Part shown: positions 1 to 62,220 of the stretch, in pieces
How positions within the stretch are numbered: the first letter of the stretch is position 1
Layout of the letters: each line of letters begins with the position of its first letter
Sequence record: PP430345
Length of the DNA stretch: 64,000 nt
Source of the DNA: Escherichia phage vB_EcoM-LTH01
Strand: one strand, 5' to 3'
Notes under the pieces: generated by a model
Told to the model about the DNA's origin: nothing
Seen by the model: the letters and a program-made list of their open reading frames with translations, nothing else
Databases searched by the model: none
Made by a program: the position numbers and the translations under genes

Positions 1-2
1 GA

Positions 3-164
3 TCAACGTCCTACATGAAGGCAGAGCACATTATTCGTATTCTTCCACTCGACCAGTTCGATGAAGAAGAAAAGAAAAAGGATAAACTTGTTTCCGATTA
101 TCGTGAAAAAGAACTTAAATTAAGACTTGACTTGTTGGAACAAGCTGGTGTAGACTATATCTAA
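3..164 (+). CDS. 3' end of a hypothetical protein (start lies upstream of the window)
   Basis: Frame is open from the window edge to TAA 162-164 (..LRLDLLEQAGVDYI*). Co-directional with the following gene train. Confidence 0.4.
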   Translation, partial: STSYMKAEHIIRILPLDQFDEEEKKKDKLVSDYREKELKLRLDLLEQAGVDYI

Positions 165-3572: not shown

Positions 3573-3753
3573 TGATCTTAGTTCACATGCGGTAATGGGA
3601 CCTGGTGGTGCACTGATCGGGATCGCAATCACAAAAGGTATTGCAAATGAAATTATCATGGAGTTTCAAAAGAAAGGTCGAACGGGTTACTATGCAACCC
3701 CTGTAGAAAGTTGGATGTTAGATTACTTTAAAGACGATACCGAGGAGGCTTAA
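3565..3753 (+). CDS. hypothetical protein (62 aa)
   Basis: ORF track. Overlaps the upstream stop. Confidence 0.5.
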   Translation: MSNDLSSHAVMGPGGALIGIAITKGIANEIIMEFQKKGRTGYYATPVESWMLDYFKDDTEEA

Positions 3754-4340
3754 TGGAATACATTAGTTGGTTGTTTATCTTATCTGCGTGGGTTATCTTT
3801 GCTATCTGGTTAGCCCCTGTGATCATCGCTTTCCGTCGTAATCACAAGAACAAGGTTGTAATTTTAGCTTTGTCATTCTTTACTTCAATGATCCCTTACC
3901 CGCTTGCATTGTTTGCTTGTTGGATAGTTCTGTTGGCTTGGTCATTGTATAAAGTTTCAGTGGTCAATGATGGCTCAAAGTCTGCATATTTAGATTCTAA
4001 GTATCTTGAGTATGCAAAAGGACCGCAAGGTTTACCTGGTCCAATGGGTCCCCGTGGAGAGTCTGCTTATGAAACATACCTGAGAATTCTTCGTAAAGAA
4101 GATCCTAGCGCTATCCCACTAAATGAGAAGGATTGGCTGGATAGTTTAAAAGGGTTGGATGGTGACAAAGGTGATCGAGGGCCATCTGCATACGATCTGT
4201 ATTGCTTATCTGTATGGTCCAAAGGTGATGGTAAAGTACCTCTGTCTTTAGATGAGTGGCTAGAATCTCTCCGTGGTAAAGATGCAGACGAATTACCTTT
4301 ATCTAAAAAAGGTGTCGTTAGTCCACCAAAACGTCCTTGA
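3753..4340 (+). CDS. membrane protein: superinfection-immunity-like TM domain fused to collagen/tail-fibre repeats (195 aa)
   Basis: N-terminus WLAPVIIAFRRNHKNKVVILALSFF..WIVLLAWSL resembles the Imm_superinfect TM motif. C-terminus has a GPQGLPGPMGPRGE G-X-Y run and two 'SAY....W(L)(D/E)SL(K/R)G' tail-fibre repeats. Confidence 0.6.
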   Translation: MEYISWLFILSAWVIFAIWLAPVIIAFRRNHKNKVVILALSFFTSMIPYPLALFACWIVLLAWSLYKVSVVNDGSKSAYLDSKYLEYAKGPQGLPGPMGPRGESAYETYLRILRKEDPSAIPLNEKDWLDSLKGLDGDKGDRGPSAYDLYCLSVWSKGDGKVPLSLDEWLESLRGKDADELPLSKKGVVSPPKRP

Positions 4341-42607: not shown

Positions 42608-42682
42608 TGGTGGCCCTGGGTGGAATCGAACCACCGTCTGGCGATTATGAGTCGCTTGCTTGAACCGTCCAGCTACAGGGCC
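42608..42682 (-). tRNA. tRNA-Met (anticodon CAU; could instead be an Ile2-type), CCA encoded
   Basis: Acceptor GGCCCTG/CAGGGCC, anticodon arm AGCGA-CTCATAA-TCGCC (A.C at positions 27-43), T arm GGTGG-TTCGATT-CCACC. Confidence 0.85.
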
Positions 42683-42698
42683 TGTATTTAAAAGAACT

Positions 42699-42784
42699 TA
42701 GCGCGGGAGGAAGGACTCGAACCTTCATACTCCAATTACTCGATTAACGACGGTTTAGAAGACCGTTGAGATACACCCGCGCTA
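42699..42784 (-). tRNA. tRNA-like element: UCU anticodon loop, long variable arm, no D arm, no encoded CCA
   Basis: 9-bp terminal stem TAGCGCGGG/CCCGCGCTA. T arm GAAGG-TTCGAGT-CCTTC. Anticodon arm ACGGT-CTTCTAA-ACCGT begins only 9 nt after the acceptor. A 23-nt variable region carries the hairpin TTAAT-CGAGTA-ATTGG. Confidence 0.45.
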
Positions 42785-45116: not shown

Positions 45117-45398
45117 ATGATTTTGAATAATAAATGTAAAAAGTTATCAGAGAATGAATTAAGTCATCTTCAAGCTATGAGAGAAGCTTGGCATTCAGCA
45201 AAAGCTGGACTGAAAGTATGTGTTGTGACTGTTTACGAATGTGACTGGTACACCATTTTGGGGAACTATTACGGAGTAATGAATCAGTATGTGGAAAAAG
45301 GCTTGATTTATCATCGTGTGGAAGATAGTATGAATCCTGACTTACAGCTTGTGGCTGAAGATTTGGATAATGTACTAATAACTTTGGAGATGATCTAA
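45117..45398 (+). CDS. hypothetical protein (93 aa)
   Basis: First gene of the rightward block, 36 nt downstream of the promoter -10. Confidence 0.6.
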   Translation: MILNNKCKKLSENELSHLQAMREAWHSAKAGLKVCVVTVYECDWYTILGNYYGVMNQYVEKGLIYHRVEDSMNPDLQLVAEDLDNVLITLEMI

Positions 45399-45541
45399 TG
45401 AAAGAGTGTAACGATATTGTTGCGTTTGGATTGAACATCGTGGAGTTTGGAACAGTGTGGTTTCTGATGCTAATAGCATTTGGTGTCAGTTTGGTTAAGT
45501 ATCTTAACAAAGGTATTGGAGAGAGGAAAAGTAAATCATGA
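45398..45541 (+). CDS. small membrane protein (47 aa)
   Basis: Absent from the track. ATG 45398 abuts the upstream TAA (TAATG) and its TGA overlaps the next ATG. TM segment VEFGTVWFLMLIAFGVSLV. Confidence 0.4.
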   Translation: MKECNDIVAFGLNIVEFGTVWFLMLIAFGVSLVKYLNKGIGERKSKS

Positions 45542-45837
45542 AATTGATCTTTAGTGATGAATTAAGCGAGCAGTTGGAAAACATCTTTCGTGCACAGGAA
45601 AAGCCTCGGTTCTACTTGTGGTGTACAGAACTGAATGACCAGTTTAAATACCTCGAAGAAATCCTCGAAGGGAGGGGTGTAGAACTCACTGTGGCGAAAG
45701 TAAGACAGAACTGTGACAACTTATGCCTCTCTGTGATTGGTGACGCTGACGAGGTTGCTTGGATGGATATGGCCCTATTGGTCTATTCACATAATCATCG
45801 TTATAAGCACCTTCTTGTTTTGGAGCATATGGAATGA
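45538..45837 (+). CDS. hypothetical protein (99 aa)
   Basis: ORF track. ATGA coupling on both sides. Confidence 0.6.
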   Translation: MKLIFSDELSEQLENIFRAQEKPRFYLWCTELNDQFKYLEEILEGRGVELTVAKVRQNCDNLCLSVIGDADEVAWMDMALLVYSHNHRYKHLLVLEHME

Positions 45838-46172
45838 AAAAGTCTATTGTGGCGTACAAGTTGTTTAGAGTCAGGAAAGACGGTACAATAGGCCCCCTAT
45901 TTATCAATAGATCTTTAGTCGTAGAAAAGAATAAGTGGATGGAAGCTGAAAATCATCCTACTCGGGGATTTTCTGTACGACCAGGTTGGCATTGTACACT
46001 TAAACCTGAAGCTCCTCATCTGAAGATAAACCTTAAATCGGGAGAGATCCGTAAATGGTTCAAGGTTGAAGTTCAAGGCACTGTTAATTTTCAAAGACCT
46101 GAATCTCAAGGCGGCACTTGGATATTGGCAGAAAGATTACGCGTTCTGGAGGAGGTATCTGGCAGTGTGTGA
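45834..46172 (+). CDS. hypothetical protein (112 aa)
   Basis: ORF track. Carries a conserved-looking motif AYKLFRVRKDGTIGPLFIN..RPGWH..APHL. Confidence 0.6.
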   Translation: MKKSIVAYKLFRVRKDGTIGPLFINRSLVVEKNKWMEAENHPTRGFSVRPGWHCTLKPEAPHLKINLKSGEIRKWFKVEVQGTVNFQRPESQGGTWILAERLRVLEEVSGSV

Positions 46173-46404
46173 ATGTGATAATTGTAAGCTTGGGAAAAGG
46201 ATCGGGGATGTTCGAGAATACCTGAAAGATCGCCCTGATCTTGTTGACACTCTTGATGAACTGTATAGTGAATACATTCATGTAAGTACGGATCTTGAGT
46301 GGCTTGAGAACGTTGTAAATAAAAGGTGGCCTAATTACCAGGGGTGTATGAAGGCTTATGGTTGGGTAGAGGACAAAAAGGAGACTAATGATGAAAGTTG
46401 TTGA
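46165..46404 (+). CDS. hypothetical protein (79 aa; start uncertain)
   Basis: Track ORF 46066..46404 overlaps the previous gene by 107 nt. GTG 46165 after GGAGGAGG is the more economical start. Confidence 0.4.
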   Translation: MCECDNCKLGKRIGDVREYLKDRPDLVDTLDELYSEYIHVSTDLEWLENVVNKRWPNYQGCMKAYGWVEDKKETNDESC

Positions 46405-46582
46405 TATAGAGATCAGTGAGAACATTGCTGGTGGGTATTCTCTTCTGGTATGTAATCGTGAAGGTGGTGAGATTGTTCACGGCTATAAGGTTGGTGGGAT
46501 GGACACTGTAGAGTCATTCACTGTTCCTTTGGACGTATTACTGGAAGCAATCAAGAATAACACCTACGATACTGAAGAGTGA
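46388..46582 (+). CDS. hypothetical protein (64 aa)
   Basis: ORF track. AAGGAG SD upstream. Confidence 0.55.
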   Translation: MMKVVDIEISENIAGGYSLLVCNREGGEIVHGYKVGGMDTVESFTVPLDVLLEAIKNNTYDTEE

Positions 46583-46586
46583 TGCT

Positions 46587-46958
46587 ATGACGACAGAGAA
46601 GAAGCCTTTTGACAAGACGGCCTTTGTTTTTAATACGCCAGTTGAAAAACTTGAAGAATGTTTGTTGACATGCAATGAAGAGTTGAGTAGACTGCTCACT
46701 ATTCCGAAACCGGACCCTTGGGTACAGGATCGTATCGACGATCTGTCTTATTGGTTGGGTATTTGGGAGCTACAGCTTCCTGACGCTAAGAGACGGAAGA
46801 TGACAACCGTTCCTATGAGTGCGATAGAAAGAGTCGTGCTTGGGCTGTATGAGAAGCCAGAGGAGCCTAAAAAGGCTTGGACCAAACCGAAAAAGAAAGC
46901 ACCACCAAAGGTGGAAAAGGAGAAGAAACGTGTCACAAAAAAGAAAAAGTCTGTCTGA
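46587..46958 (+). CDS. hypothetical protein with Lys-rich tail (123 aa)
   Basis: C-terminus KPKKKAPPKVEKEKKRVTKKKKSV may bind nucleic acid. Confidence 0.6.
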   Translation: MTTEKKPFDKTAFVFNTPVEKLEECLLTCNEELSRLLTIPKPDPWVQDRIDDLSYWLGIWELQLPDAKRRKMTTVPMSAIERVVLGLYEKPEEPKKAWTKPKKKAPPKVEKEKKRVTKKKKSV

Positions 46959-46977
46959 GAAATGGCTTAGTAACGGA

Positions 46978-47331
46978 ATGTCAAACCAGTGGATTGATTC
47001 TGGATTGGCAACCTGCTTGAAAAAGCCAAACAAGACGCTCATCGAAGAAGAACCAAAAGATGAAGTTTTCGAATCTCCGAATGGAAGTGTTTGGATTGTG
47101 GCTGTCGATTACAGTGGACGGGTAACCGTCCTTAAAGCACCAAATATTCATCCTGCATTGCTTGACGAGGGTCCTGAAGCGGAGTATATTGGTCTTCCAC
47201 CTGATTCAGATTCTGGCCCTGGTGTTTACCGTTGGACGTGTAGTTATCATGAAAGTAAGGATCGAGAATCTAATCTTGTGGACGGTTTTGAGTTTCATGT
47301 GGAGAAAGAAGAGGTTCTTTTCTCTGTTTAG
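46978..47331 (+). CDS. hypothetical protein (117 aa; start uncertain)
   Basis: The track start at 46840 overlaps the previous gene by 119 nt. ATG 46978 is the first start after that gene's stop. Confidence 0.45.
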   Translation: MSNQWIDSGLATCLKKPNKTLIEEEPKDEVFESPNGSVWIVAVDYSGRVTVLKAPNIHPALLDEGPEAEYIGLPPDSDSGPGVYRWTCSYHESKDRESNLVDGFEFHVEKEEVLFSV

Positions 47332-47340
47332 GAGGAAACA

Positions 47341-47562
47341 ATGAGGATAAGTAAGAAGACTCATCCGTTTTATTTCACCAATGTCTATATGGGTGGGGAA
47401 CTGAAGAAATCCAGCTTTGATGCTTGGTATCGAGGGATCAAAGCATTCGCATTTCTCCGTCGGAACATTGGTGGCATCATTAAAAAGAATGATCAGTTCT
47501 TTAAAGAGAATCCTGATTATGTTGAAGGTGCTCTTTGTGGAAAACTAAAGGAGACTAAATGA
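47341..47562 (+). CDS. hypothetical protein (73 aa)
   Basis: ORF track. AGGAGGAAACA SD upstream. Confidence 0.6.
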   Translation: MRISKKTHPFYFTNVYMGGELKKSSFDAWYRGIKAFAFLRRNIGGIIKKNDQFFKENPDYVEGALCGKLKETK

Positions 47563-47894
47563 AATATCGGTTCAATGGCTACAAAACTAAATTTACCTCT
47601 CTTAAGTTTGTTGTTGGTAAGGTATATGATTTCAAAGATCGAGTTTTTGAAGTTGCTAATGAAGATGGGATCATGCTATCGGGTAGCGACGAGAATGGTA
47701 CAACCGGAGTGATCGTATTTTTTAAGGACTATGATTTCGAAGTTGTTGGGGAGGGAAGTCCTGAGATACGGTATATTGTTAGTGGCAAGAATGTAACTAA
47801 AGAGGTCTTTGAAGAGGTTAAAAAATCCCTAGAAGATCTTGACAAGATTGGGTTTGGTCTGGCAAAATACACATTAGAAATCAAAGCAAACTAA
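47559..47894 (+). CDS. hypothetical protein (111 aa)
   Basis: ORF track. ATGA overlap. Confidence 0.6.
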   Translation: MKYRFNGYKTKFTSLKFVVGKVYDFKDRVFEVANEDGIMLSGSDENGTTGVIVFFKDYDFEVVGEGSPEIRYIVSGKNVTKEVFEEVKKSLEDLDKIGFGLAKYTLEIKAN

Positions 47895-47903
47895 GGAGAA
47901 GTG

Positions 47904-49271
47904 ATGAGCGTAACTAAGATTATCGAACAACTGGCAGCAACCGGATCAACAAAAGAAAAAGAAGCGATCTTACGTAGTCATGCGGATAACGATGGCCTGC
48001 GTGAAGTATTTCGGGTAGCATATAGCAAAGAGTTAAACTTCTTTGTTCGCAGTTTTAAGGTTGATCCTGCAACTTTCCACCAAGGAAGCCGTAATCTGCA
48101 AGAGAGTATTGATCTTATCGTCAACGATGTTGCAAGCCGTATGTACACTGGGCATGAAGCTCGTGATGTTCTCACGAATGCCGTTCAACTGTGTGAAGAA
48201 CCCGAAACCCTGATAAAGATCATCAACCGCGATCTTGAGTGTGGTATCCAGACAACTCTGACCAACAAGGTTTGGAAGGACCTGATTACAGAGCCTCCTT
48301 ACCAGAGCTATACTCTTTTCAAAGAGGATCTCCTTCGTAATTTCAACTATGAGGGTGCTTTCTCCGACGAGAAGATGGACGGACTTTATGCAGACATTAT
48401 GGTTTGGCCTGAGCAGGTCATTTATCGTTCACGATCAGGGAAAGAGCTTAATTTCCGGTGTATTACTTCACTTGAGCAAAACCTGAAAGAAAAAGCCAAT
48501 TCTGATGGTCCTTTTGTTATGCACGGGGAAGGTTTAGTTATTGACCTGTCATACCCGCACGGGGTTCAACCACGAGAGATCGGTAACGGATATCTTAACC
48601 AAGATCCTGAAAACATTGATCCTAATCTGGTACGTTTGGTTGTTTGGGATGTTGTTTCTATGGACGAGTATATCGCACGTAAATCCAAGAAAAAATATAA
48701 AGACCGTCGTAAGCAGGTTGAAAATATTGTCAACTATGTTGATGAGTCTTCTCATTTCCAGATGATCCGTGGTCGTCAGATAGGCAGTCTTAAAGAGGCT
48801 ATTGACCACTTTATCGAAATGCGTTTGCAGAAGAAAGAGGGTACGGTTCTTAAAGAAGCGAATATGCCTTGGGGAGATAACAAGACTAAGAAAGGGATCA
48901 AACTTAAAAATGAGTTCGATGTTGATCTTGAGGTTGTGGCGACAACGCCTCACAAGAAGAAGCCTGGGCTTATTGGATCTCTGGTCTGCCGGACTCGTGA
49001 TGGACTTCTTGAAGTTGGTGCTGGGTCTGGACTTACTGATGCGCTTCGTAAAAAGCCGAGTGAGTATTTCATTGGGCAGATTATTACGATCAAGGCTAAT
49101 GACATTACTGATGCGGAGAATAAAGATCTGAAATCGCTGTTTTTGCCACGTTTAAATTATAAGTTTGTTGAACTTCGCTTTGATAAGAGCGTAGCCAACA
49201 GCCTGGAAGAAGTGATCGAAGCATCGAACTCTCTTCTGGATCTTCTTCGTAAAATTGCAGAGGAGGTTTAA
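47904..49271 (+). CDS. ATP-dependent DNA ligase, T4 gp30-like (455 aa)
   Basis: Adenylation motif EKMDGLY (KxDG). N-terminus IIEQLAATGSTKEKEAILRSHADNDGLREVFRVAYSKELNFFV parallels the T4 ligase N-terminus. AAGGAG SD upstream. Confidence 0.85.
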   Translation: MSVTKIIEQLAATGSTKEKEAILRSHADNDGLREVFRVAYSKELNFFVRSFKVDPATFHQGSRNLQESIDLIVNDVASRMYTGHEARDVLTNAVQLCEEPETLIKIINRDLECGIQTTLTNKVWKDLITEPPYQSYTLFKEDLLRNFNYEGAFSDEKMDGLYADIMVWPEQVIYRSRSGKELNFRCITSLEQNLKEKANSDGPFVMHGEGLVIDLSYPHGVQPREIGNGYLNQDPENIDPNLVRLVVWDVVSMDEYIARKSKKKYKDRRKQVENIVNYVDESSHFQMIRGRQIGSLKEAIDHFIEMRLQKKEGTVLKEANMPWGDNKTKKGIKLKNEFDVDLEVVATTPHKKKPGLIGSLVCRTRDGLLEVGAGSGLTDALRKKPSEYFIGQIITIKANDITDAENKDLKSLFLPRLNYKFVELRFDKSVANSLEEVIEASNSLLDLLRKIAEEV

Positions 49272-49273
49272 TA

Positions 49274-49735
49274 GTGGAAGCTTTAATTATCGCTGTTGTG
49301 GGGATTACACTTTACCTTTCCGTAATTTTGGGCGTTCCCGTGTTGCTTACTCGTAAGCCAGCAGGTAAGATCTTGAAGTTGATTCGTGAAGGATCTTCTC
49401 GGTTTGAGGTACATTCTGGAGTTTTTGTTCCTGAGGGCCATGAAGATCCTTGTGAGGATAATGATGATCTTTGGTATGTTGATTATACAATTGTTGATAC
49501 GGTCACAGGTAAGGTTACTTACATTGAAAAGGTTTGTGGTATTATCTCCGATAGCCTTTTCGTAAATGGCGATCTGTTCTGGATGAATGATTATGAAGGT
49601 ACACGACTTTACCACACCTGTCGTCGAATCGTTAAGCGACGTAATAAGGCTTCAAAAAAGGACAAACGATCTAAGTTCGAGATCGAAAAGGATGAAGCAC
49701 GTAAAGTTGCACTAGAAACTTATAAAGACTGTTGA
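49274..49735 (+). CDS. membrane-anchored hypothetical protein (153 aa)
   Basis: GTG start. N-terminal TM ALIIAVVGITLYLSVILGVPVLL. Confidence 0.55.
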   Translation: MEALIIAVVGITLYLSVILGVPVLLTRKPAGKILKLIREGSSRFEVHSGVFVPEGHEDPCEDNDDLWYVDYTIVDTVTGKVTYIEKVCGIISDSLFVNGDLFWMNDYEGTRLYHTCRRIVKRRNKASKKDKRSKFEIEKDEARKVALETYKDC

Positions 49736-49761
49736 CAATGATAAGGGGCCATTATACATGA
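49732..49761 (+). promoter_or_regulatory. PeSL-like promoter / stem-loop
   Basis: TTGACA (49732-49737) overlaps the upstream TGA stop. Hairpin GGGGCCAT-TATAC-ATGACCCC (49745-49765, one mismatch) carries the A/T-rich -10-like loop. The spacer is shorter than ideal at 15-16 nt. Confidence 0.4.
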
Positions 49762-49788
49762 CCCCAAGTTAAACGAAAGGAGATTAAA

Positions 49789-50526
49789 TTGAAATACAAT
49801 GAATTGAGTACTGATCAAAAAACCTTTATTTCCGAGATGATTGATGTTAAGGGCAATAGCTTCTTTCGGGAAGCAGCAGAGCGAGTAAAAAATTGGAATT
49901 TTGTTGCTCGTGGTTTTCATGACTTCTCTGAAGATGTTTCAAAATTCCAAAAAACTCTTGTTATGGAAGAGTACAATGAACTTTATGATCTTGGTTTAAC
50001 TAAAAAGAATCGTAAGGAAATCATAGATGCACTTTGCGACTTGTTTGTAGTTGGATCATATTACAACTTCTTGAAAGGTGGTTCTGAAAACATCTGTCCT
50101 GCTGACAATGTTGGTACGTATAATCTGACTTCGCTTTATCGAACTCTTGATCAATTTATCGAGAGTGACAATACAAACGGGATCGTTATGGCGGTTGTTG
50201 CAATCATGCAGAACTCCAACTTTAATGCTCATCGTGCTTTAAATGAGGTTTTGGATTCAAATGATTCCAAGATCCCAACCGTGAAAGAATTTACAGAAGG
50301 TTTCTACAAGACGTATTACTTTTTTGCAGAAGCTGATTTTGATCTTGATGCCATGATGCGTTTGGAAGCAGAACAGATTGAACTGCGTAACCGTAACCGT
50401 TATCATGGTGTGAAGGGAAGTATCGTAAAAGGTGGTGATGGTATGGATCGAGTAGTATTTAAAGATAAGAACGGCAAGATCATGAAGCCGATCACTTATT
50501 TTGAAGCAAACCTAGAGGGAATGTAA
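49789..50526 (+). CDS. all-alpha NTP pyrophosphohydrolase (MazG/dimeric dUTPase-like) candidate (245 aa)
   Basis: TTG start after AAGGAG. Motif LVMEEYNELYD..EIIDALCDLFVV is typical of the MazG-type metal-binding EExxE/D helices. Confidence 0.4.
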   Translation: MKYNELSTDQKTFISEMIDVKGNSFFREAAERVKNWNFVARGFHDFSEDVSKFQKTLVMEEYNELYDLGLTKKNRKEIIDALCDLFVVGSYYNFLKGGSENICPADNVGTYNLTSLYRTLDQFIESDNTNGIVMAVVAIMQNSNFNAHRALNEVLDSNDSKIPTVKEFTEGFYKTYYFFAEADFDLDAMMRLEAEQIELRNRNRYHGVKGSIVKGGDGMDRVVFKDKNGKIMKPITYFEANLEGM

Positions 50527-50529
50527 TTA

Positions 50530-50706
50530 ATGCCGTTGTATTCTTACAAATGTGAAAAATGTGGTGAAGTTTTCGATCAAAATAGAAAGATCGCAGAACG
50601 TGAAAATGCTCCTTGCAAGTGTGGAGAGATTGCAGTAAAATGTTTGTCTGCTCCACGAGGAATTAAAAACGGTTATTGTGACCAGGGTAAAATGTTTGTA
50701 CGATAG
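50530..50706 (+). CDS. FmdB-type zinc-ribbon protein (58 aa)
   Basis: Absent from the track. MPLYSYKCEKCGEVFDQ..APCKCGE. The 'Y.Y.C..CG..F' opening is the FmdB/CxxC_CxxC_SSSS signature. Confidence 0.55.
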   Translation: MPLYSYKCEKCGEVFDQNRKIAERENAPCKCGEIAVKCLSAPRGIKNGYCDQGKMFVR

Positions 50707-50714
50707 GGGGAATT

Positions 50715-51059
50715 ATGAATCAAGAAAAAGATGTTGAAAAACCTGGCTTACCTGTGTATGATGGTTCTCAGACTAAAATTTCTTTTGATGGTTTAGTTAT
50801 TACGGGTCTTGCAAGTGGTAAAAAATATGCTCGTCGTCCAAACGGTTATCATGAGATCTATGTCAGTGCATTAAGTCCTTTTGTCCGTCAGTTCCAAATT
50901 GGACTAAAAGGTAATTTAACCTTGAAGATCCATACGGGTTATGAAACATTTGCAACGTGTACTTTACCTTGTGAAACTGTAGCTCTGCTTGTGTCAGAGA
51001 TCAGTGATGAAATCCCAGTCTTTCAGGTTGTTTTTAAAGAACTTAAAAATCCTGCTTGA
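50715..51059 (+). CDS. hypothetical protein (114 aa)
   Basis: ORF track. GGGGGAATT SD upstream. Confidence 0.6.
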   Translation: MNQEKDVEKPGLPVYDGSQTKISFDGLVITGLASGKKYARRPNGYHEIYVSALSPFVRQFQIGLKGNLTLKIHTGYETFATCTLPCETVALLVSEISDEIPVFQVVFKELKNPA

Positions 51060-51092
51060 CATAAGATATTGAATGGGGTATTCTTACCCCAT
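51056..51092 (+). promoter_or_regulatory. PeSL-like promoter / stem-loop
   Basis: TTGACA (51056-51061, overlapping a TGA stop), 17-nt spacer, TATTCT (51079-51084). A perfect 8-bp hairpin ATGGGGTA-TTCT-TACCCCAT spans 51073-51092. Confidence 0.55.
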
Positions 51093-51144
51093 CGAAGCAA
51101 AGAAGTTAACTTACTATTTAAACATTAAAGAGGAGAAATACAAA

Positions 51145-51456
51145 ATGGCTAAATCTAAAACTGACCTGATCACTACCCTGCCTTCTGACCTGGAAGTTCG
51201 TAAGCGTCTGGCTAACATTGTTCAGGAAGGTGTTGAAGCTGTTCGTCGTCAGAAAGATGCTGCTGAAGATCTGAAAAGCATCCTGGCGATCACTAAAGAA
51301 GACCTGAACATCGACCCTAAATTCCTACGTACCCTGATCAACGGTGAATATGATAAGCAAGATGCAGCAGAGAAGAAACGTGCAGCGCTTGAAAGCCAGA
51401 TTGAACAACTGAACGAACTTGATATCTTGATGGGCCGTGAAGTTGGTGAAGAATAA
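51145..51456 (+). CDS. abundant small helical protein, GapR/DUF2312-like candidate (103 aa)
   Basis: ATG 51145 after AGAGGAGAAATACAAA (the track start at 51073 lies inside the promoter hairpin). 9 of 13 Leu codons are CTG and 7 of 7 Arg codons are CGT. The segment ..AEDLKSILAITKEDLNIDPKFLRTLI..ALESQIEQL..LMG resembles GapR. Confidence 0.6.
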   Translation: MAKSKTDLITTLPSDLEVRKRLANIVQEGVEAVRRQKDAAEDLKSILAITKEDLNIDPKFLRTLINGEYDKQDAAEKKRAALESQIEQLNELDILMGREVGEE

Positions 51457-51496
51457 TATAAAGTTAATATCTTAAACTTCTATAAGGAGAAATTCT

Positions 51497-51718
51497 GTGA
51501 ATATCAAAGAAGTTAATCCAGGGCAGACAGTTAAGTTCAACCCACTGGGTAATTATGAGGATCGCTATAATTTGTACGGTGTTCAAGTTGGTGATACAGG
51601 TGTTGTTGAATTCGTTGATGAAGAATGTGAATATGTCACTGTTGCATTCACACGTCAGGACGGTGTTATCGTTGATGGTTTCTACGCAGAAGCTGAAGAT
51701 TTAGAACTCGTAGCTTAA
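51497..51718 (+). CDS. hypothetical protein (73 aa)
   Basis: GTG start 7 nt after AAGGAG. Confidence 0.55.
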   Translation: MNIKEVNPGQTVKFNPLGNYEDRYNLYGVQVGDTGVVEFVDEECEYVTVAFTRQDGVIVDGFYAEAEDLELVA

Positions 51719-51727
51719 GTAACGATC

Positions 51728-51747
51728 GGGCCACATTAGTGTGGCCC
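51728..51747 (+). terminator. hairpin GGGCCACA-TTAG-TGTGGCCC
   Basis: 8-bp stem 10 nt after the stop. Followed by TTATAAT rather than a U-run. Confidence 0.4.
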
Positions 51748-51781
51748 TTATAATGAAAAATACAAAAAAGGAGATACAAAT

Positions 51782-52024
51782 ATGAATATTAATTTTAACG
51801 ACGCAACTTACGAAAAACTGAAATACCTGGCTACTCTGGAAGGTCGATCAGTTGCAGCGTATATCTCCCAAAAGATGGATGAGCTTACAGGTCAACTGGT
51901 AAATGTTGAATATTCACTGAATGATATTCCAGAAGGTACGCCTCTTGCTCATATGGATCTAACTCCAAAGCCACGAATCGTAGATCGTGACACTGATGAA
52001 CAAGATGGTTACGCAAATTGGTAA
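51782..52024 (+). CDS. ribbon-helix-helix (CopG/Arc-like) DNA-binding protein (80 aa)
   Basis: MNINFNDATYEKLKYLATLEGRSVAAYISQKMDEL shows the beta-strand plus two-helix RHH pattern, with an acidic tail. Confidence 0.55.
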   Translation: MNINFNDATYEKLKYLATLEGRSVAAYISQKMDELTGQLVNVEYSLNDIPEGTPLAHMDLTPKPRIVDRDTDEQDGYANW

Positions 52025-52034
52025 AAATTTTTAA

Positions 52035-52058
52035 GCCGCCCTTCGGGGCGGTTTTTCT
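52035..52058 (+). terminator. rho-independent terminator (UUCG tetraloop)
   Basis: CCGCCC-TTCG-GGGCGG followed by TTTTTCTTT. The same 16-mer recurs at 59497. Confidence 0.75.
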
Positions 52059-52069
52059 TTATCTATCTC

Positions 52070-52097
52070 TTGACACCTGCCTCCAGTTCTGTATAAT
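52070..52097 (+). promoter_or_regulatory. sigma70-type promoter
   Basis: TTGACA (52070-52075), 16-nt spacer, TATAAT (52092-52097). Confidence 0.65.
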
Positions 52098-52126
52098 ACC
52101 TATATCAACCAACAACAGGAGATAAA

Positions 52127-52315
52127 ATGAATATTAAACTTACAAAAGAAATGATTGCCGTGTTTATGCAAATTTCGTCAGTTCGTGATGGGATGAGTAA
52201 AGAATCTAAGAGTATTAAGTTACCTGAAGTTGACTCTCTCGTAACACTTCTTGAAAATGTTGGAGCACTTATTCTTCGTGAAATGACCAAGCAAGATTCT
52301 ACTACAGAGGGGTGA
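52127..52315 (+). CDS. hypothetical protein (62 aa)
   Basis: ORF track. CAGGAG SD upstream. Confidence 0.55.
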
Positions 52316-52319
52316 TCAA

Positions 52320-52784
52320 TTGAAAACTTTTAAAGAACGTATGGAATTGTTAGATAAAGCTTTGTCTCGTGAAACTCCAGAGAGTTTGTTTGAAAAACTA
52401 CAGTCATACGGAAATGCTGATTACTCTTTCGAAGATATGATGGATGAGATTCCTGAGATCTGTTGGCAAACATGTTATTGGAATAACGATCAAAAAGTTC
52501 AACGTACTATTGTATGTGCAGCTAATCGGTTTAAATTGAAAGATGGTGGAACTCTGATTATCCCTGGATCTCGTCATTACTCTAAGGATATGGCAGAAGT
52601 GCTTGATGTGGTGGGGCCACAATTAGTATCTCAGCAAGTTTGTGGAGACGATCAAGGCTTTATCGACCAATACGGTAATTATTGGAATCGTGAAGAAGCA
52701 ATGATTATTGCAACTTATGCCGGACAGGTACGTATCGAACGTGGTGGAAGTGAGAAAGAACTTTACTCGGAGGACCTTTACTGA
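52320..52784 (+). CDS. hypothetical protein (154 aa)
   Basis: TTG start 9 nt after GAGGGG. The C-terminal half has a conserved-looking motif [36 protein letters not shown]. Confidence 0.55.
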
Positions 52785-53056
52785 TGAACACTAAACAGCT
52801 TACTATTGAAGCTTTGCAGCTTAAGATAAAACAAATCGAGTATCTTAACCAGATGATGAAAGAGGGTTGGGGTACGTATACTAATCAGCCTGCCTGGGAG
52901 GCTTTAGGTCATCCATACCTGAACGATGCTTGTAATGGTAATATTCCTCGTGATGGGTTGAAACCTTTCTTACGGGATATGTACATTAAGGTTAACGAAG
53001 AGATCATTGATTCCCTTTACTATCAGATCAGGAAACTCGAAAATGAGAGTAATTGA
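52784..53056 (+). CDS. hypothetical protein (90 aa)
   Basis: ATGA overlap. Confidence 0.55.
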   Translation: MNTKQLTIEALQLKIKQIEYLNQMMKEGWGTYTNQPAWEALGHPYLNDACNGNIPRDGLKPFLRDMYIKVNEEIIDSLYYQIRKLENESN

Positions 53057-53243
53057 TTCTAAAAGTGATTATTTCAATTCTTTAAATGATAAGGACAAGA
53101 CTAAGATTCGTCACTTCATCGTAGAGATGGGATACACCAACTCTGAAGATTTGAAAGAGCATATTCTCGAATGTTACGTAGCTAAGAAATTTTCTTTGAC
53201 AAGTAAGTGTTTAAATGAGATTATACAGCACTACACGGCTTAA
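53043..53243 (+). CDS. hypothetical protein (66 aa)
   Basis: The track start at 53007 overlaps the upstream gene by 50 nt. ATG 53043 is closer to the upstream stop. Confidence 0.45.
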   Translation: MRVIDSKSDYFNSLNDKDKTKIRHFIVEMGYTNSEDLKEHILECYVAKKFSLTSKCLNEIIQHYTA

Positions 53244-53256
53244 GGGGGATAGTTGA

Positions 53257-53589
53257 ATGGGTAAATTAGTTGTTTTGGAAGTTCGGGCAGCAGACTTAGC
53301 AAAGGCAGTTGGTTTCTTTAAATTTGAAGATTCTGAATTTCGTGAGCGATGGGGACTTAACTTACCATCCAAAATCTGTGGTCTTTTTAAGGCAAGTCAG
53401 ATCGAAGACCTGATTATTAAAAAGATTGTTAATCTTGATGGTGTGGAATTTAATAATATTGTCGTTTTCGACGAAGACTTTGATTGGTCTGCCTATTGCA
53501 GCCTTTCAGATTGGATTGCTAAATTCCCGATGGCAGAAAACTGTTCTGTTTCAATTCCTGGATCTTTACTGGAGATTGTGAATGTATAA
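53257..53589 (+). CDS. hypothetical protein (110 aa)
   Basis: ORF track. GGGGGATAG SD upstream. Confidence 0.55.
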   Translation: MGKLVVLEVRAADLAKAVGFFKFEDSEFRERWGLNLPSKICGLFKASQIEDLIIKKIVNLDGVEFNNIVVFDEDFDWSAYCSLSDWIAKFPMAENCSVSIPGSLLEIVNV

Positions 53590-53818
53590 TCAAGATATCG
53601 AAACGATTAAAGAAAGGCTTAAGTTGATGACAGCTTCGCCCAATGTAACGACTAAGGATGTTGATCTTATTCGTCAAACACTTCATGTAATAAATTCATT
53701 AGAAGAGGAGATCAAGTCTCTCAATGTTGATGTAGGTTGTTACAAACATGCTTATGTTGCGTTTGCTGACATTACGAAGATTATGGCTCGGGAGTTAGAA
53801 AAATCGAAACATTCTTAG
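53582..53818 (+). CDS. hypothetical protein (78 aa)
   Basis: ORF track. 8-nt overlap with the upstream gene. Confidence 0.55.
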   Translation: MYNQDIETIKERLKLMTASPNVTTKDVDLIRQTLHVINSLEEEIKSLNVDVGCYKHAYVAFADITKIMARELEKSKHS

Positions 53819-53954
53819 GGGTTATCGTTTTAATACTGGCATTCTACCTCTTCACAAGAGCGTGCTGGATTGGATTTTTCAGTACGCCTGACGGATTACT
53901 TTCGGTAGTGCTATTCTTGATTTCAATATCTGCATTGGATCTATAGGAGTTTTT

Positions 53955-54506
53955 ATGCGAGTCACTGATAAACATGTGTTCTTTTATTCTTATCGCGATG
54001 TTTTTAGTAATCATTACCAGGAGATCTCTCCATTCTCAAACTTCGACCAGAAGATGAAGGGGGTTTATTTCCACACTGGTGAGCATTACATGATGTATGA
54101 AAAGGCTATGCTTTTCGGTGACAAAGCTTCAGCGGAAAGGATCATTAAGGCCGTAACGCCGCAAGGTGCTAAAACGCTCGGTCGTAAGGTAAAGAATTTT
54201 GATCAGGCAGTTTGGGATGAAAATAAATTTAACATTGTGACCCGTTTAGTGTATAGTCGTATGTGTGATAATGGTAATCTCCGTGAACTTGCGGTAGGTT
54301 ACCGTAAAAAGGGTTTGAAGTTTGTAGAAGCCTCGCCGAGAGATCGTATATGGGGGATCGGTATGGACGAGAATCATCCTATGGTAGATGATGAAAGTTT
54401 CTGGTATGGAGAGAATCTTTTGGGGAAAGCCTGGGACGAAGCAACGGATATGATTATCGATGTTTCGGAAGCTATGAATATGATTGGTAAATGTGAGGCA
54501 TACTAA
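53955..54506 (+). CDS. NADAR (YbiA/DUF1768) family protein (183 aa)
   Basis: Family motifs FFYSYRDVFSNHY, YFHTGEHYMMYEKAMLFGD, WDENKFNIV and SPRDRIWGIGMDENHP..W.GENLLGKAW. Confidence 0.75.
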   Translation: MRVTDKHVFFYSYRDVFSNHYQEISPFSNFDQKMKGVYFHTGEHYMMYEKAMLFGDKASAERIIKAVTPQGAKTLGRKVKNFDQAVWDENKFNIVTRLVYSRMCDNGNLRELAVGYRKKGLKFVEASPRDRIWGIGMDENHPMVDDESFWYGENLLGKAWDEATDMIIDVSEAMNMIGKCEAY

Positions 54507-55010
54507 ATGAAATTAACTATCGAATTAATCCCAAGCACAGCTTGGGACAACAACCTTCGGTCTTACCTTACCCAATCTGGTTGGGACAAAGTTCGTCGAA
54601 AGTGCTATCAAGAAGCAAACTACCACTGTGAGGTTTGTGGAGGTCAAGGTGGAAATGGACGTAAGCATCCATGTGAAGCTCACGAGGTATGGGACTTTGT
54701 TGATGGGGAAGTTGTGTTAAGGGGTGTGATCGCTTTATGTCCTCCTTGCCACGAAGTAAAACATATCGGTCGTGCTCAAGCGACTGGTAACATGACTCGT
54801 GCAATACGACACTTTATGAAAGTTAACGGTGTTGACAAGAAGGCTGCTGAAGAATACATTAGGCAAGCTGCGGCATTGTGGCGAGAAAGAAGTAAGCAAG
54901 AGTGGTCTTTGAATATCGATTATCTGTATGAATACATGGGTAAAGATTTCAAATTCAAGCGACCAGTAAAAGAAGTTAAAGAAGACGAAGATTACGGCGA
55001 AGCATTTTAA
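54507..55010 (+). CDS. HNH / zinc-finger nuclease-like protein (167 aa)
   Basis: Starts 1 nt after the NADAR stop. Motif CEVCGG..H.CEAHEVW..ALCPPCHEVKHIG carries Cys4/His ligands. Confidence 0.5.
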   Translation: MKLTIELIPSTAWDNNLRSYLTQSGWDKVRRKCYQEANYHCEVCGGQGGNGRKHPCEAHEVWDFVDGEVVLRGVIALCPPCHEVKHIGRAQATGNMTRAIRHFMKVNGVDKKAAEEYIRQAAALWRERSKQEWSLNIDYLYEYMGKDFKFKRPVKEVKEDEDYGEAF

Positions 55011-55023
55011 TAAGGAGAGGTCT

Positions 55024-56133
55024 ATGGGTTATCCGGTAATTGAAGATTGGTCAGGTATTATCGAAGACAACGTGGTTGTTGCACTTGATCTCGATCAAAC
55101 TTGCTATGTTGCTGCGGCTGGTGCAGAAAAAAGAACGATCATCGCTCGACACAAGGAGACTGGAAGGGAAAAAGAATTTCGCAACAAAACAGAGTTTTGG
55201 GGTCGCCAAAAGAATGTTGTTGGTGGATGGTTAAAAGACCAAAACATTAATATGGAAGCAAAAGCGGTTGCTCGCGGAAAAGAATTTACTCCGTGGACCC
55301 GTGATGATTTCGAGATCATTGAAAAGCAAACTCCAGAACCAGTGGAGAACTGTCTTCACTTATTGAAGATTAAGATCAATGCTATTCTTGAACACGTAGG
55401 ATCAGCAAACGGGCTTGGTGTTTTAGGTGGGAGTGGTAACTTCCGTCTTGCACTCCCGACCCCTGAGATCTATAAGGGTAACCGTGAAGATACTTTACGT
55501 CCTCTGTTGCTTGGGGAGACTCGTCGATATGTTCAGCAGAAGTATGGTGCGATCATTGTGGATGGTATTGAGGCAGATGATTATTTATCGATCCTTGGTT
55601 ACAAAGGTTATTTAAATTATCGAAAGACTGGAAAGTTCAGTCATATTGTGGCATCCTTTGATAAGGATCAGGTTCAGGTTCCTTCTCTGTTGTTTAACAC
55701 GATGCGTGATTCAACAGAGCGTACTTGGAAACATCCTGAACTCTGGTTGATTGATGATTCTATGGGTGAGATCTGGATGGAGTCTGGAAAGGTAAAAGGC
55801 TGGGGTAAGAAATTCTTCGGTTACCAAATGCTATTTGGTGATGCAGCGGATAACGTTAAACCATATCAAACCTTCGAGGGTCTTCGCTTTGGTGAAACAT
55901 CGGCTTTCCAGGTCATCTCCCCTTGTGCAGACGAGAAGAGTATGTGGTTAGCTATTATTGATCAGTATAAGAAGTGGTTTCCTGAGGGTGTTGAATATAC
56001 AGACCACTTAGGGAATCATCGTAAGTTTTCAGCGGGTCAGTGGGCTTCTGTCATTTTCCAGTGTGTTTATATGAAGCGCACAGAAAATGATAAGACAACA
56101 TTATCCTCAACTTTAAAACGGGTAGGTATTTAA
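55024..56133 (+). CDS. 5'-3' exonuclease / flap endonuclease (T7 gp6 / FEN family, 369 aa)
   Basis: Ordered FEN motifs: LDLD, YKGNRED, GIEADDYL, ASFDKDQ and FGDAADNVKP. Confidence 0.7.
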   Translation: MGYPVIEDWSGIIEDNVVVALDLDQTCYVAAAGAEKRTIIARHKETGREKEFRNKTEFWGRQKNVVGGWLKDQNINMEAKAVARGKEFTPWTRDDFEIIEKQTPEPVENCLHLLKIKINAILEHVGSANGLGVLGGSGNFRLALPTPEIYKGNREDTLRPLLLGETRRYVQQKYGAIIVDGIEADDYLSILGYKGYLNYRKTGKFSHIVASFDKDQVQVPSLLFNTMRDSTERTWKHPELWLIDDSMGEIWMESGKVKGWGKKFFGYQMLFGDAADNVKPYQTFEGLRFGETSAFQVISPCADEKSMWLAIIDQYKKWFPEGVEYTDHLGNHRKFSAGQWASVIFQCVYMKRTENDKTTLSSTLKRVGI

Positions 56134-56444
56134 TGTCAGGCTTTTCTGAGAGTTTTGATGATGTTATGATCGCTGACGAAATTCGTGCAGCACTCGTTCC
56201 TGGCGCAAAGCGCCAGGTCTACAAGATTGAAGAACCTTGGACTATGCTGGAGGAGCCTTGGAGAATTCAATGGTTTGACAAGCGTGTTGATTCTATCTGT
56301 CAGGTCTATGTTGTTGGTGATCCGTTCTACGATGAGAAATATGTAACTTTTATGGTTTACATGGACGGAGAAGTAAAGAACTATGTGTTCTTAATCGACC
56401 AATATCATTATCTTGATAATACCGAAGAAGGGGAATCAGCGTGA
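56133..56444 (+). CDS. hypothetical protein (103 aa)
   Basis: TAATG junction: ATG 56133 overlaps the upstream TAA stop by 1 nt. Confidence 0.55.
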   Translation: MSGFSESFDDVMIADEIRAALVPGAKRQVYKIEEPWTMLEEPWRIQWFDKRVDSICQVYVVGDPFYDEKYVTFMVYMDGEVKNYVFLIDQYHYLDNTEEGESA

Positions 56445-57019
56445 AAATTTTATCCATCGATCAGAGTATGGCTTCTTGTGCATGTGTAGTTTTTGACGGT
56501 AATGAACCGATCTTTAAAGAAGTATTGAAAACAACAGGATCTGCAAATGCCAAAGACTGGCAGATTCGTTTTGATAATCCTGTTGAGCAGATGGCATACA
56601 TTTCTCGACACATTGCGGATATTTGTGAGTCTTTCCAGGTCGAGAAGATCGTGCTGGAGTCTTTGAGCTTTGGATCTGCTGGTAATGCCACAAGGGATCT
56701 TGCAGGATTATTTTTCTGTATTCAGTTGACACTACTTCGAGATGGATATAGTATGGACAACATACACACCATTGCACCAACATCTGTTAAATCTTGGGCG
56801 CGAGGTAAATTACCTGGTGAGGAACAAGAGGTGATGAATGCAAAAGGTACGAAGATGGAAAAAATTAAAATGGATAAAGATCAAATGATGAAGGTTTGCG
56901 AGTTGATGGAACCTGGGTTTTTAGCTGGATATTCAAAGACAGGTAAGAACGGCGGGGCTACAGATCTTGCAGATGCCTACTTAATTGGGAGATGCTACCT
57001 TGAACGAAACGGTTATTGA
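56441..57019 (+). CDS. RuvC-like Holliday junction resolvase (192 aa)
   Basis: GTG start overlapping the upstream TGA. Catalytic acidic positions at MKILSIDQS, KIVLESLSFG and TDLADAYLIG. Confidence 0.65.
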   Translation: MKILSIDQSMASCACVVFDGNEPIFKEVLKTTGSANAKDWQIRFDNPVEQMAYISRHIADICESFQVEKIVLESLSFGSAGNATRDLAGLFFCIQLTLLRDGYSMDNIHTIAPTSVKSWARGKLPGEEQEVMNAKGTKMEKIKMDKDQMMKVCELMEPGFLAGYSKTGKNGGATDLADAYLIGRCYLERNGY

Positions 57020-57653
57020 ACGCTACGAATCTGAAGAGTTTTACCAGAGTAAGAAATTAGTGATCTGTTGGAATACCCTCGAAAGGGGGGATTTCATTGC
57101 TAAACTAAAGCACACTGCAAATAAGTTGGGGTTTGGTTCTTATCAGAAGGATCGTAGTGGTTACGATATAAACCTGTTTAATGAGCGATCTAAGCTGAAC
57201 ATGCACATTCAGACGATCAGTTCTGCACAGTGGTCTTTTTGGCAAAAAGTCAGAGGTATGTGTTTTGACGAAATCATCATCAGTGGGTATTCTTTTAAGT
57301 CTGTTTCTGATAAAGCTTCACTGAAAGAATTACTTTATTTGACGAAGCAAAAAGGTAATCCGATTTTTGATAATGCTTTAAGGGTTTTTATAAACTCAAG
57401 TCGATCTGAATTCTTTAAGGATTTTGATTCGAACGTTCCATCAGAGTTTAAAAATAATGTTGACAACAGTCTGTTTAGTAATATAAACTTTCCAATGTCA
57501 CTTTATCGCTTCGGAATGGAAGAGTATTTTGAAAACCCTGTTGCACCTACACACGGTGAGTTCTTAATGGCTTTGGCCTTGGAGGGAGTACATGCGAGTA
57601 CCGAGAGTGAGGAAGCGGCGGTCAAAGAGGCCACTATTCACAGCGAAGGATAA
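56985..57653 (+). CDS. hypothetical protein (222 aa; start uncertain)
   Basis: Only TTG starts (56985 or 57000) are available. Its 3' end overlaps the next gene by 62 nt. Confidence 0.45.
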   Translation: MGDATLNETVIERYESEEFYQSKKLVICWNTLERGDFIAKLKHTANKLGFGSYQKDRSGYDINLFNERSKLNMHIQTISSAQWSFWQKVRGMCFDEIIISGYSFKSVSDKASLKELLYLTKQKGNPIFDNALRVFINSSRSEFFKDFDSNVPSEFKNNVDNSLFSNINFPMSLYRFGMEEYFENPVAPTHGEFLMALALEGVHASTESEEAAVKEATIHSEG

Positions 57654-58381: not shown

Positions 58382-58391
58382 GGAGTTTTTA

Positions 58392-61191: not shown

Positions 61192-62220
61192 ATGTCCATG
61201 ATTGAAGCCCGTATTATTGCAGATTCTGTTGGCTATCGTAGTAAAGCTCGTATCACCACGTTTGAATTGACCTATCCTCGATTCATTCACTCAGAACTTA
61301 TGACACACCGACTGTTTAGTAGAAATGCAATGTCTTCTCGTGCAGTGCCGATCAAGACAATGGTTAAACTGATCCGTGAAAATATGGCAATGCCTGTTCG
61401 ATTTGGTGCTAACCAACCTGGTATGCAGGATAAAGGAACAGAACATGATGGTAAAGTATGGTATGATTGGGTGGAAGATACAAGTGGCGTGTGTCATGAA
61501 CTGTACTGTACCGGACGAGAAGCTTGGGCGAAGGCTGCGGAAAATGCCTGTGAATGGGCAGAACGTTTCGAGGCAGCGGGGTTCCATAAGCAGATTGCTA
61601 ACCGATTGATCGAGCCGTTCCAGATGATGAAGACTATCGTTACAGCAACAGAATTTGAAAACTTCTTCTGGTTACGTGTTGATGCAGACGCAGACCCAAC
61701 GATCGAAGTATTGGCTAAGAAAATGCACGAAGCTTATAAAGCTTCTACTCCAGAATGGTTACAACCTGGTGTGTGGCATACGCCTTACGTAGACCATTGT
61801 TTCGACTCTGGACCTTTGGGTGATGGGCATATTTTTGCAGGGTATTGTGTACAGGATGAAGATGGAAATCACATTATGCTGTCCGAAGAAGAGGCTTTGT
61901 CTATCTCTTCCTCTTGTTGTGGACAGGTAAGTTATCGTCGTCTTAACAATACGAAAGATAAGGCTTTGGATATTTATGCCAAGCTCGTATCCGGTAAAAA
62001 GGTCCACGCTTCTCCGTTCGAGCATCAGGCGAAGGAGATAGAAGAGACATTTGAACCCGATGAAGTACAAGACGGTTACAATATGGTAAATGTCCCTTGG
62101 TGTTCAGCATCTTGGGAAGAGGGTATTACTCACGTAGATCGTGACGGTAACTTCTGGAGTGGAAACCTGAAAGGGTTTGTTCAACATCGTCAGTTAATTC
62201 CTGGTCATGTTGCAAAATAA
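61192..62220 (+). CDS. thyX: flavin-dependent thymidylate synthase ThyX (342 aa)
   Basis: ThyX signature THRLFSRNAMSSRA ((R)HRxxSxxxxSxR). GAGAGGAG SD upstream. Confidence 0.8.
   Translation: MSMIEARIIADSVGYRSKARITTFELTYPRFIHSELMTHRLFSRNAMSSRAVPIKTMVKLIRENMAMPVRFGANQPGMQDKGTEHDGKVWYDWVEDTSGVCHELYCTGREAWAKAAENACEWAERFEAAGFHKQIANRLIEPFQMMKTIVTATEFENFFWLRVDADADPTIEVLAKKMHEAYKASTPEWLQPGVWHTPYVDHCFDSGPLGDGHIFAGYCVQDEDGNHIMLSEEEALSISSSCCGQVSYRRLNNTKDKALDIYAKLVSGKKVHASPFEHQAKEIEETFEPDEVQDGYNMVNVPWCSASWEEGITHVDRDGNFWSGNLKGFVQHRQLIPGHVAK

Follow-up and report, generated by a model that had tools for sequence, protein, structure and literature searches.

The 64,000-nucleotide stretch of DNA from Escherichia phage vB_EcoM-LTH01 analysed here (sequence record PP430345; the whole stretch is called the window below) carries four plus-strand sites at which a TTGACA hexamer is combined with a hairpin whose arms are G-rich and C-rich, respectively. 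The closest records to this phage are those of the Septuagintavirus group (rV5-like) within the Vequintavirinae, so that it is not a T4-type myovirus, and the region around the four sites is 93-96% identical to the Escherichia phages A5-4, A73, W70, A7_1 and UPEC06. The plus-strand genes, at 1-6034 and 45117-64000, form early-type clusters of small open reading frames (ORFs), while the minus-strand genes, including those for structural proteins, lie between 6034 and 45117.

Elements of similar composition are known from the T4-type phages RB49/phi1, PST/T4 and nt-1/KVP40 as promoter-early-stem-loop (PeSL) cassettes (PMC2839356, PMC4122927). A PeSL consists of a near-consensus sigma70 promoter and a stem-loop, often of the polyG/polyC kind (Arbiol et al. 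2010, PMC2839356), which mostly lies between the -35 and -10 elements or overlaps the -10, with the upstream stop codon and the downstream Shine-Dalgarno sequence (SD) inside the cassette (PMC2839356); in RB49/phi1 the stems take the form Gn-loop-Cn (Comeau et al. 2014, PMC4122927). We document the sequences, enrichment, conservation, covariation and strand asymmetry of the sites in the window, together with an inversion at one of them. We assign a probability of about 0.6 to the reading that these are PeSL-type composite cassettes in an rV5-like coliphage, each made up of a host sigma70 early promoter and an RNA hairpin, and each closing one transcription unit and opening the next.

Anatomy and enrichment of the four sites

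The features of the four sites are given below. Folding energies are RNA minimum free energies (MFE) in kcal/mol, the z-scores express hairpin stability relative to shuffled sequence, and predicted transcription starts are set 7 nt after the -10 element.

4337-4342, plus strand: site 1, -35 element TTGACA; its TGA (4338-4340) is the stop codon of ORF 3753..4340
4354-4373, plus strand: site 1, hairpin GTGGGGC-ataatg-GCCCCAC, a perfect 7-bp stem (MFE -15.4, z -3.7)
4360-4365, plus strand: site 1, -10 element CATAAT, N17 after the -35, covering the last stem base and the loop; predicted start at ~4372, in the 3' arm
49732-49737, plus strand: site 2, -35 element TTGACA; its TGA (49733-49735) is the stop codon of ORF 49274..49735
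49745-49765, plus strand: site 2, hairpin GGGGCCAT-tatac-ATGACCCC, with a C.A mismatch in the stem (z -2.1)
51056-51061, plus strand: site 3, -35 element TTGACA; its TGA (51057-51059) is the stop codon of ORF 50715..51059
51073-51092, plus strand: site 3, hairpin ATGGGGTA-ttct-TACCCCAT, a perfect 8-bp stem (MFE -13.8, z -4.2)
51079-51084, plus strand: site 3, -10 element TATTCT, N17 after the -35, covering the stem end and the loop; predicted start at ~51091
62224-62252, plus strand: fourth site, promoter TTGACA-N17-TATTAT, 4 nt past the TAA stop codon of ORF 61192..62220
62263-62284, plus strand: fourth site, hairpin GGGGCA-tat-TGCCCC (62263-62277) followed by TCTTTTT (MFE -10.7; z -1.4, not significant); called by the terminator scan

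All four copies listed in a preliminary description of this DNA are present, and in three of them TTGACA does double as the stop codon of the preceding gene. That description also placed the -10 in the hairpin loop, which is correct for 4337 and 51056, applies to 49732 only in the relatives of this phage, and does not extend to 62224, where the hairpin begins 10 nt beyond the -10, at approximately +4 to +25 of the predicted transcript, in a geometry unlike that of the other three. Sites 4337 and 51056 share a single geometry, TTGACA-N13-GGGG-N8-CCCC with the -10 at N17. This strict pattern has 2 matches in the window against 0.02 expected; the relaxed pattern TTGACA-N5-20-GGGG-N3-14-CCCC has 3 against 0.08 expected, a number that 0 of 100 shuffles reach. 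The motif is therefore commoner than in shuffled sequence and the observation is non-random; its description was mis-specified for two of the four copies.

The site 1 hairpin is identical in A7_1, A73 and A5-4, and among the relatives site 3 has two loop alleles and one stem-breaking allele. We considered TGTATAAT as an extended -10 and rejected it, since its TG, at -14/-13, abuts the hexamer rather than lying at -15/-14.

An inverted hairpin at site 2

The most informative new fact is an exact flip of the site 2 hairpin that removes the -10 of a promoter. The orthologous 21 bp of the relatives (GGGGTCATGTATAATGGCCCC), once reverse-complemented, give exactly the segment 49745-49765 (GGGGCCATTATACATGACCCC) of the window, between identical flanks; the change amounts to 7 differences in 21 bp, with a minimal inverted segment of 49749-49761. 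All 15 close relatives, comprising five GenBank phages and ten contigs found via the 90% cluster of the 245-aa protein encoded downstream of site 2, have the forward form, and none has the flipped one. Within the 64-kb alignment of the window to A5-4, which contains 194 mismatch clusters, site 2 is the sole exact inversion.

In the relatives, site 2 reads TTGACA-N16-TATAAT with the -10 in the loop. Because the hairpin is inverted, the plus-strand -10 has been lost in the window: there is no acceptable -10 on this strand and the site is absent from the promoter-scan list. The TATAAT has passed to the minus strand (49756 to 49751), where no good -35 precedes it. The gene for the 245-aa protein follows site 2:

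49789-50526, plus strand: gene for a 245-aa protein, downstream of site 2

With the -10 lost, this gene would depend on upstream read-through. The flip also turns a sense-strand U.G pair into a C.A mismatch, with an RNA MFE of -9.4 here compared with -15.3 kcal/mol in the relatives. In our reading the flip arose once, as a derived mutation, and took the -10 from the promoter preceding the 245-aa gene; predictably, it silences the site 2 promoter and weakens the sense-strand RNA hairpin.

The flipped site was not found in IMG/VR, where the forward form occurs only in phiTE, CR3 and one further contig, and an IMG/VR scan with the site 2 flanks of this lineage gave no match. Neither orientation was matched in two metagenome scans or in E. 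coli genomes, and an exact-protein look-up of the ORF upstream of site 2 was likewise without a match.

An inverted repeat in DNA would be prone to inversion of its spacer, by template switching or by recombination between the arms, and such an event would account for 49749-49761. Inversion of the spacer between short inverted repeats through polymerase template switching is a mechanism described in PMC8604942, and quasipalindrome-associated multinucleotide mutation is the subject of PMC7202029 for E. coli quasipalindromes. Site 2 resembles these cases in that a short, imperfect inverted repeat has had its spacer and inner arm replaced by their exact reverse complement in one event, which takes the guise of 7 clustered 'substitutions' within 21 bp. 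It differs in that the inverted spacer is a promoter -10, with a predictable regulatory effect. We found no described spacer inversion in a phage promoter in the searchable literature, where absence is no proof; a study of proteobacterial inverted repeats (PMC5941160) says nothing of inversions and is not used as support.

Conservation and covariation of the stems

The site 2 intergenic region lies between an ORF of ~150 aa (after a ligase gene) and an ORF of ~250 aa, and it keeps the stop codon within the -35, the hairpin around the -10 and the SD even where the 250-aa protein is only 37-48% identical. Three orthologues read as follows.

Relative L027: TTGATT..GGGTCAT-GTATA-ATGGCCC
Relative L029: TTGACA..GGGGTCGT-GTAAA-ATGACCCC
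Serratia phage Kashira: TTGACA..GGGGTCAT-GTAAT-ATGGCCCC

In the Certrevirus phages P7_Pc, phiTE and CR3 the same 21-mer occurs unchanged between other flanks and ahead of another gene, and a paralogue of the site 2 cassette is present in A5-4.

A look-alike also occurs in swan01, a T1-like siphovirus of the Drexlerviridae, in an intergenic region (L036 230-300) that reads TTGTTA..GGGGCCA-ggtataa-TGGCCC..SD and is 82% identical to the forward site 2 cassette over 44 nt (E = 0.04). This would reflect either convergence or exchange of a cassette between unrelated coliphages.

When nine distinct hairpins are aligned, 98.6% of cells pair, and three pairs vary yet remain paired: pair 1 (GC/GU/AU), pair 5 (UG/CG/UA) and pair 7 (AU/GU). 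The site 1 homologue in L027 (~85% identity over 46 nt, by our own count) has a G-C to A-T double change and one G.T pair in its stem. A further intergenic hairpin in the window behaves in the same way.

51728-51747, plus strand: extra intergenic hairpin GGGCCACA-ttag-TGTGGCCC (MFE -15.6, z -4.2), without a T-run
51749-51754, plus strand: TATAAT beginning two bases past the stem, without a -35

It has five alleles among the relatives, all of which pair on the sense strand, with changes that follow a C-G to T.G to T-A path; in the seven stem pairs common to the five alleles, every non-Watson-Crick pair is a sense-strand G.T. The same holds throughout the conserved stems, apart from the loop-closing G/A of swan01: the non-Watson-Crick pairs are all G.T on the sense strand, and hence A.C on the antisense strand, in approximately seven independent cases with no opposite case. 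The exceptions to pairing that lie outside these stems are the flipped site 2 of the window and the stem-breaking site 3 allele of A5-4. Wobble pairs that occur in the sense strand only point to an RNA hairpin in sense transcripts rather than to a symmetric DNA cruciform, and so to a hairpin that works in read-through RNA.

Proposed function of the cassettes

In this reading each cassette fits a host sigma70 early promoter into an interval of 50-90 nt that separates two early genes. The -35 includes the upstream TGA, the -10 falls in the hairpin loop, and the arms of the G/C-rich stem (7-8 bp) take up the distal spacer and the discriminator. A transcript started at the cassette would begin in the 3' arm and would thus lack the hairpin, having instead an unstructured, A-rich leader up to the SD. 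Read-through RNA from upstream promoters, on the other hand, would hold the whole hairpin, 8-14 nt past the stop codon, where it would probably serve as an attenuator and shield the upstream cistron from exonucleolytic attack at its 3' end. A single sequence would in this manner close one transcription unit and open the next.

Several roles had been suggested for the hairpin in the preliminary description, and these fare differently. The role of a canonical terminator of upstream transcription does not suit the three hairpins that contain or once contained a -10, the tails of which (CTTAAACAAC, AAGTTAAACG and CGAAGCAAAG) have no U-tract, whereas the copy at 62263-62284, with its TCTTTTT, is terminator-like. 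The hairpins share with Rho-independent terminators a G/C-rich stem just past a stop codon; the three differ, beyond the missing U-tract, in loops that are longer and AT-richer than the TTCG tetraloops of this genome. Canonical TTCG-loop terminators with T-runs are present in the same window, at 52033-52054, 59495-59514 and many minus-strand sites. Given these proper terminators and the absence of U-tracts in the cassettes, attenuation or 3'-end protection is favoured over efficient termination. According to the PeSL authors, one RB49 stem-loop of this kind, which may or may not carry a U-tract, cut downstream lacZ expression about as much as rrnB T1 (PMC2839356).

A role as a 5' stabiliser of RNA is excluded by geometry at 4337, 49732 and 51056, where the predicted start lies in the 3' arm and the cassette's own RNA would be without the 5' arm; it is possible only at 62224. 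The relevant comparison is with the 5'-terminal stabilising stem-loops of bacterial and phage mRNAs, of the ompA type. Site 62224, and about a dozen cassettes of an array in A5-4 described below, resemble these in having a G/C stem-loop a few nucleotides past the predicted start, in contrast to the other three sites.

Alternative explanations

The palindromes might instead act in DNA, either by extruding as a cruciform or hairpin that modulates promoter opening, as the preliminary description had envisaged for occlusion of the -10, or through the flip as a reversible switch that turns off or redirects the promoter. The -10 is centred exactly in the palindrome at three sites, and a flip that moved TATAAT to the other strand has actually taken place in the window phage. 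We nevertheless regard action at the DNA level as unlikely. The strand-asymmetric G.T pairs, with A.C opposite, would destabilise one arm of a cruciform, and stems of 7-8 bp with loops of 4-6 nt extrude poorly. The window phage alone is flipped, among 15 close relatives and the contigs of IMG/VR, and its flipped -10 lacks a good -35. A fimS/hin-type switch, in which a dedicated recombinase flips a segment between inverted repeats and both orientations coexist in populations, is not what is found here: the site 2 segment measures 13-21 bp, with one orientation in 15/15 relatives and the other only in the window, and we know of no invertase-type system for a 21-bp element.

That the stems have no function as hairpins at all, and that a G-rich spacer and a GC-rich discriminator (GGCCCC) tune the promoter, for example to supercoiling or ppGpp, with complementarity that is incidental or a by-product of template switching, is in our view improbable. 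This explanation would fit the coincidence of the 3' arm with the discriminator and of the 5' arm with the spacer, as well as the string ATAATGGCCCCA that sites 1 and 2 have in common; homogenisation of the arms of inverted repeats by template switching is described in PMC8604942. Yet the 3' sequence common to sites 1 and 2 pairs at each site with a 5' arm of its own and in its own register, forming a stem both times; double-sided compensation has occurred, from GC to AU at pair 1 and from G-C to A-T in L027; and the excess over shuffles concerns complementarity, beyond G/C content. Less probable still is an operator, in which a dimeric DNA-binding protein of phage or host would bind GGGG..CCCC over the -10 and shut off early promoters. 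The 21-bp core GGGGTCATGTATAATGGCCCC is identical across genera while its flanks diverge, and the conserved gene just downstream of site 3 is annotated as a transcriptional regulator in some records, both as an operator would lead one to expect. The distance from GGGG to CCCC, however, is 8, 13 and 8 nt at sites 1, 2 and 3 of one genome, the stems differ between copies (GTGGGGC, GGGGTCAT and ATGGGGTA), the changes preserve pairing and not sequence, and the non-promoter hairpin at 51728-51747 evolves alike.

The composite-cassette reading, in which promoter and read-through hairpin share one sequence, has a number of points to contend with. Every function that it gives to the cassettes, be it promoter activity, the start sites or attenuation and stabilisation, is deduced from sequence, and we found no transcript data for this phage group in the searchable literature. 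Efficient termination is not expected by canonical rules from three hairpins that lack a U-tract. Most strong promoters of the window (45053, 52070, 53196, 60908 and those of the minus strand) have no hairpin. The covariation is modest: 24 of 500 shuffles score at least as high, two-sided change is confined to one pair, and the set comprises 9 sequences, several of them related. Since the stem arms also form the spacer and the discriminator of the promoter, some of their conservation could be due to what the promoter requires and not to pairing. Finally, a C to G substitution in A5-4 (L001 ~6085, equivalent to window 51088; TACCGCAT) falls in the 3' arm of site 3 and breaks one G-C pair, from which it follows that the site 3 hairpin is not indispensable, and the window phage tolerates the loss of the site 2 -10; taken together, neither the hairpin nor the -10 is essential.

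Comparison with PeSL cassettes and modularity

The likeness to PeSLs noted in the preliminary description extends to the anatomy of the cassettes. A near-consensus promoter with ~17-nt spacing is predicted at 4337, 51056 and 62224, and at 49732 only in the relatives (N16). A GGGG/CCCC stem lies over the -10 at three sites and downstream of it at the fourth, matching the positional classes of PMC2839356, and the upstream stop codon and downstream SD/ATG fall inside the cassette. The cassettes are repeated amongst small early genes of unknown function, with several positional subclasses per genome. The analogy does not extend to the host phage, which belongs to the Vequintavirinae rather than to the T4-type phages (Straboviridae), nor to the conservation between copies, which spans nearly 100 bp in PeSLs, enough for homologous recombination, whereas the window copies share only hexamers, G/C runs and short strings such as ATAATGGCCCCA. 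With so little sequence in common, the window copies are poor substrates for homologous recombination. The sequence upstream of the window cassettes, moreover, is mostly coding and not an AT-rich spacer. We found no paper that treats PeSLs together with rV5 or the Vequintavirinae in the searchable literature; the rV5 genome paper lists promoters and terminators separately, and the paper describing Septuagintavirus mentions neither promoters, terminators nor hairpins.

In the complete genome of A5-4, hairpin centres fall at +15..29 from TTGAC[AT] 8 times against 2.8 expected (~7 copies over the spacer or -10) and at +45..54 12 times against 1.4 expected. The latter class, with the hairpin just downstream of the start, numbers ~12-14 copies, mostly in an array of small ORFs outside the window. 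This array (OP744025, ~75-90 kb; L009 36000-42000 and L010 1-8000) holds ~25 very small ORFs on the plus strand, most of them behind a repeated cassette that reads aaaaagta(g)TTGACA-N16/17-TAAnnT-gtatcaca..-GGCGGC-aata-GCCGCC, in which the stem begins ~10 nt past the -10 and no T-run follows. Judged by its sequence, no other class in this phage group is as uniform or as close to the PeSLs.

The preliminary description went on to connect the cassettes with the shuffling of gene modules, for which the evidence is weak. In the case of PeSLs, shuffling is associated with mini-circles and with indels or replacements that have cassettes at their borders in close relatives. Of the indels examined that separate the window from its relatives, none has a cassette on both sides. 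They comprise an HNH gene that follows the site 3 hairpin in A73 and W70, a small gene after promoter 52070 (window 52070-52130) that is present in A5-4 and A73 and absent from the window and UPEC06, and two indels, at 45838-46167 and 55010-55024, that were placed by alignment coordinates only. The small gene of A5-4 and A73 encodes a signal-peptide-like N-terminus (MSKNRALVMGFALGCL...), and its junctions lie in two SD/start regions, not in cassettes. The best hint of modularity comes from L027, which has a site-1-like cassette at the position of site 3 in the window, in front of a non-homologous gene that is followed by a hairpin-less promoter and the conserved downstream gene. Homology between the genes behind window site 1 and L027:5301 was considered and rejected (DUF7325 and FRD2, respectively; BLASTP E = 20).

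Neighbouring genes and other features of the window

The gene after site 3 has an in-frame ATG at 51145 behind a strong SD, AAGAGGAG; the N-terminus of its orthologues (MAKSK...) matches this start, which UPEC06 also has in its record. In the records of A5-4 and A7_1 the same gene begins at an ATG within the hairpin, at window 51073. For annotators, the placement of this start at 51073 is probably wrong, and 51145 is the likelier position.

Between the site 3 hairpin and the downstream SD, A73 (L002 1771-2271, ~window 51105) and W70 have an extra ORF of 166 aa that contains an HNH-like motif. The ORF resembles a free-standing homing endonuclease gene and would use the cassette promoter.

Window 52320-53056 encodes members of the T4 Y16D/Y16C families (arn-like, annotated 'anti-restriction nuclease'), and its DNA is ~78% identical to that of hundreds of T4-type phages, while the surrounding region matches the Vequintavirinae only. 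This suggests gene exchange between Vequintavirinae and T4-type phages in the arn-like block.

An Rfam search over the window gave five tRNAs and no other RNA family, on which basis the possibility that the cassette hairpins belong to a known RNA family was rejected. The five tRNA genes are on the minus strand in two clusters, at 41238-41475 and 42611-42780, which adjoin strong sigma70-like promoters of the same strand at 42471, 43107 and 44795.

Implications

What appears to be new is the occurrence of PeSL-type cassettes in the rV5-like subfamily, along with one natural inversion of a promoter hairpin; the cassette type itself is known. PeSL-type cassettes would thereby be extended from T4-type to rV5-like phages, with a look-alike in a T1-like phage, and a G/C hairpin over the -10 may be a general means by which lytic coliphages fit the boundaries of transcription units into very short intergenic spaces. 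The restriction of wobble pairs to the sense strand provides a testable argument for action in read-through RNA over action in DNA, and the flipped site 2 is a natural mutant, the comparison of which with A5-4 would separate the contributions of promoter and hairpin.

We would offer only as a speculation, and one that we think doubtful, that the hairpin-embedded -10 is a conserved class across Vequintavirinae, T4-type phages and Drexlerviridae, in which the same 20 nt would serve as a DNA promoter and as a transcript-end element in RNA, and that on/off flipping of promoters by spacer inversion, which needs no recombinase, would repeatedly generate regulatory variation in phage populations.

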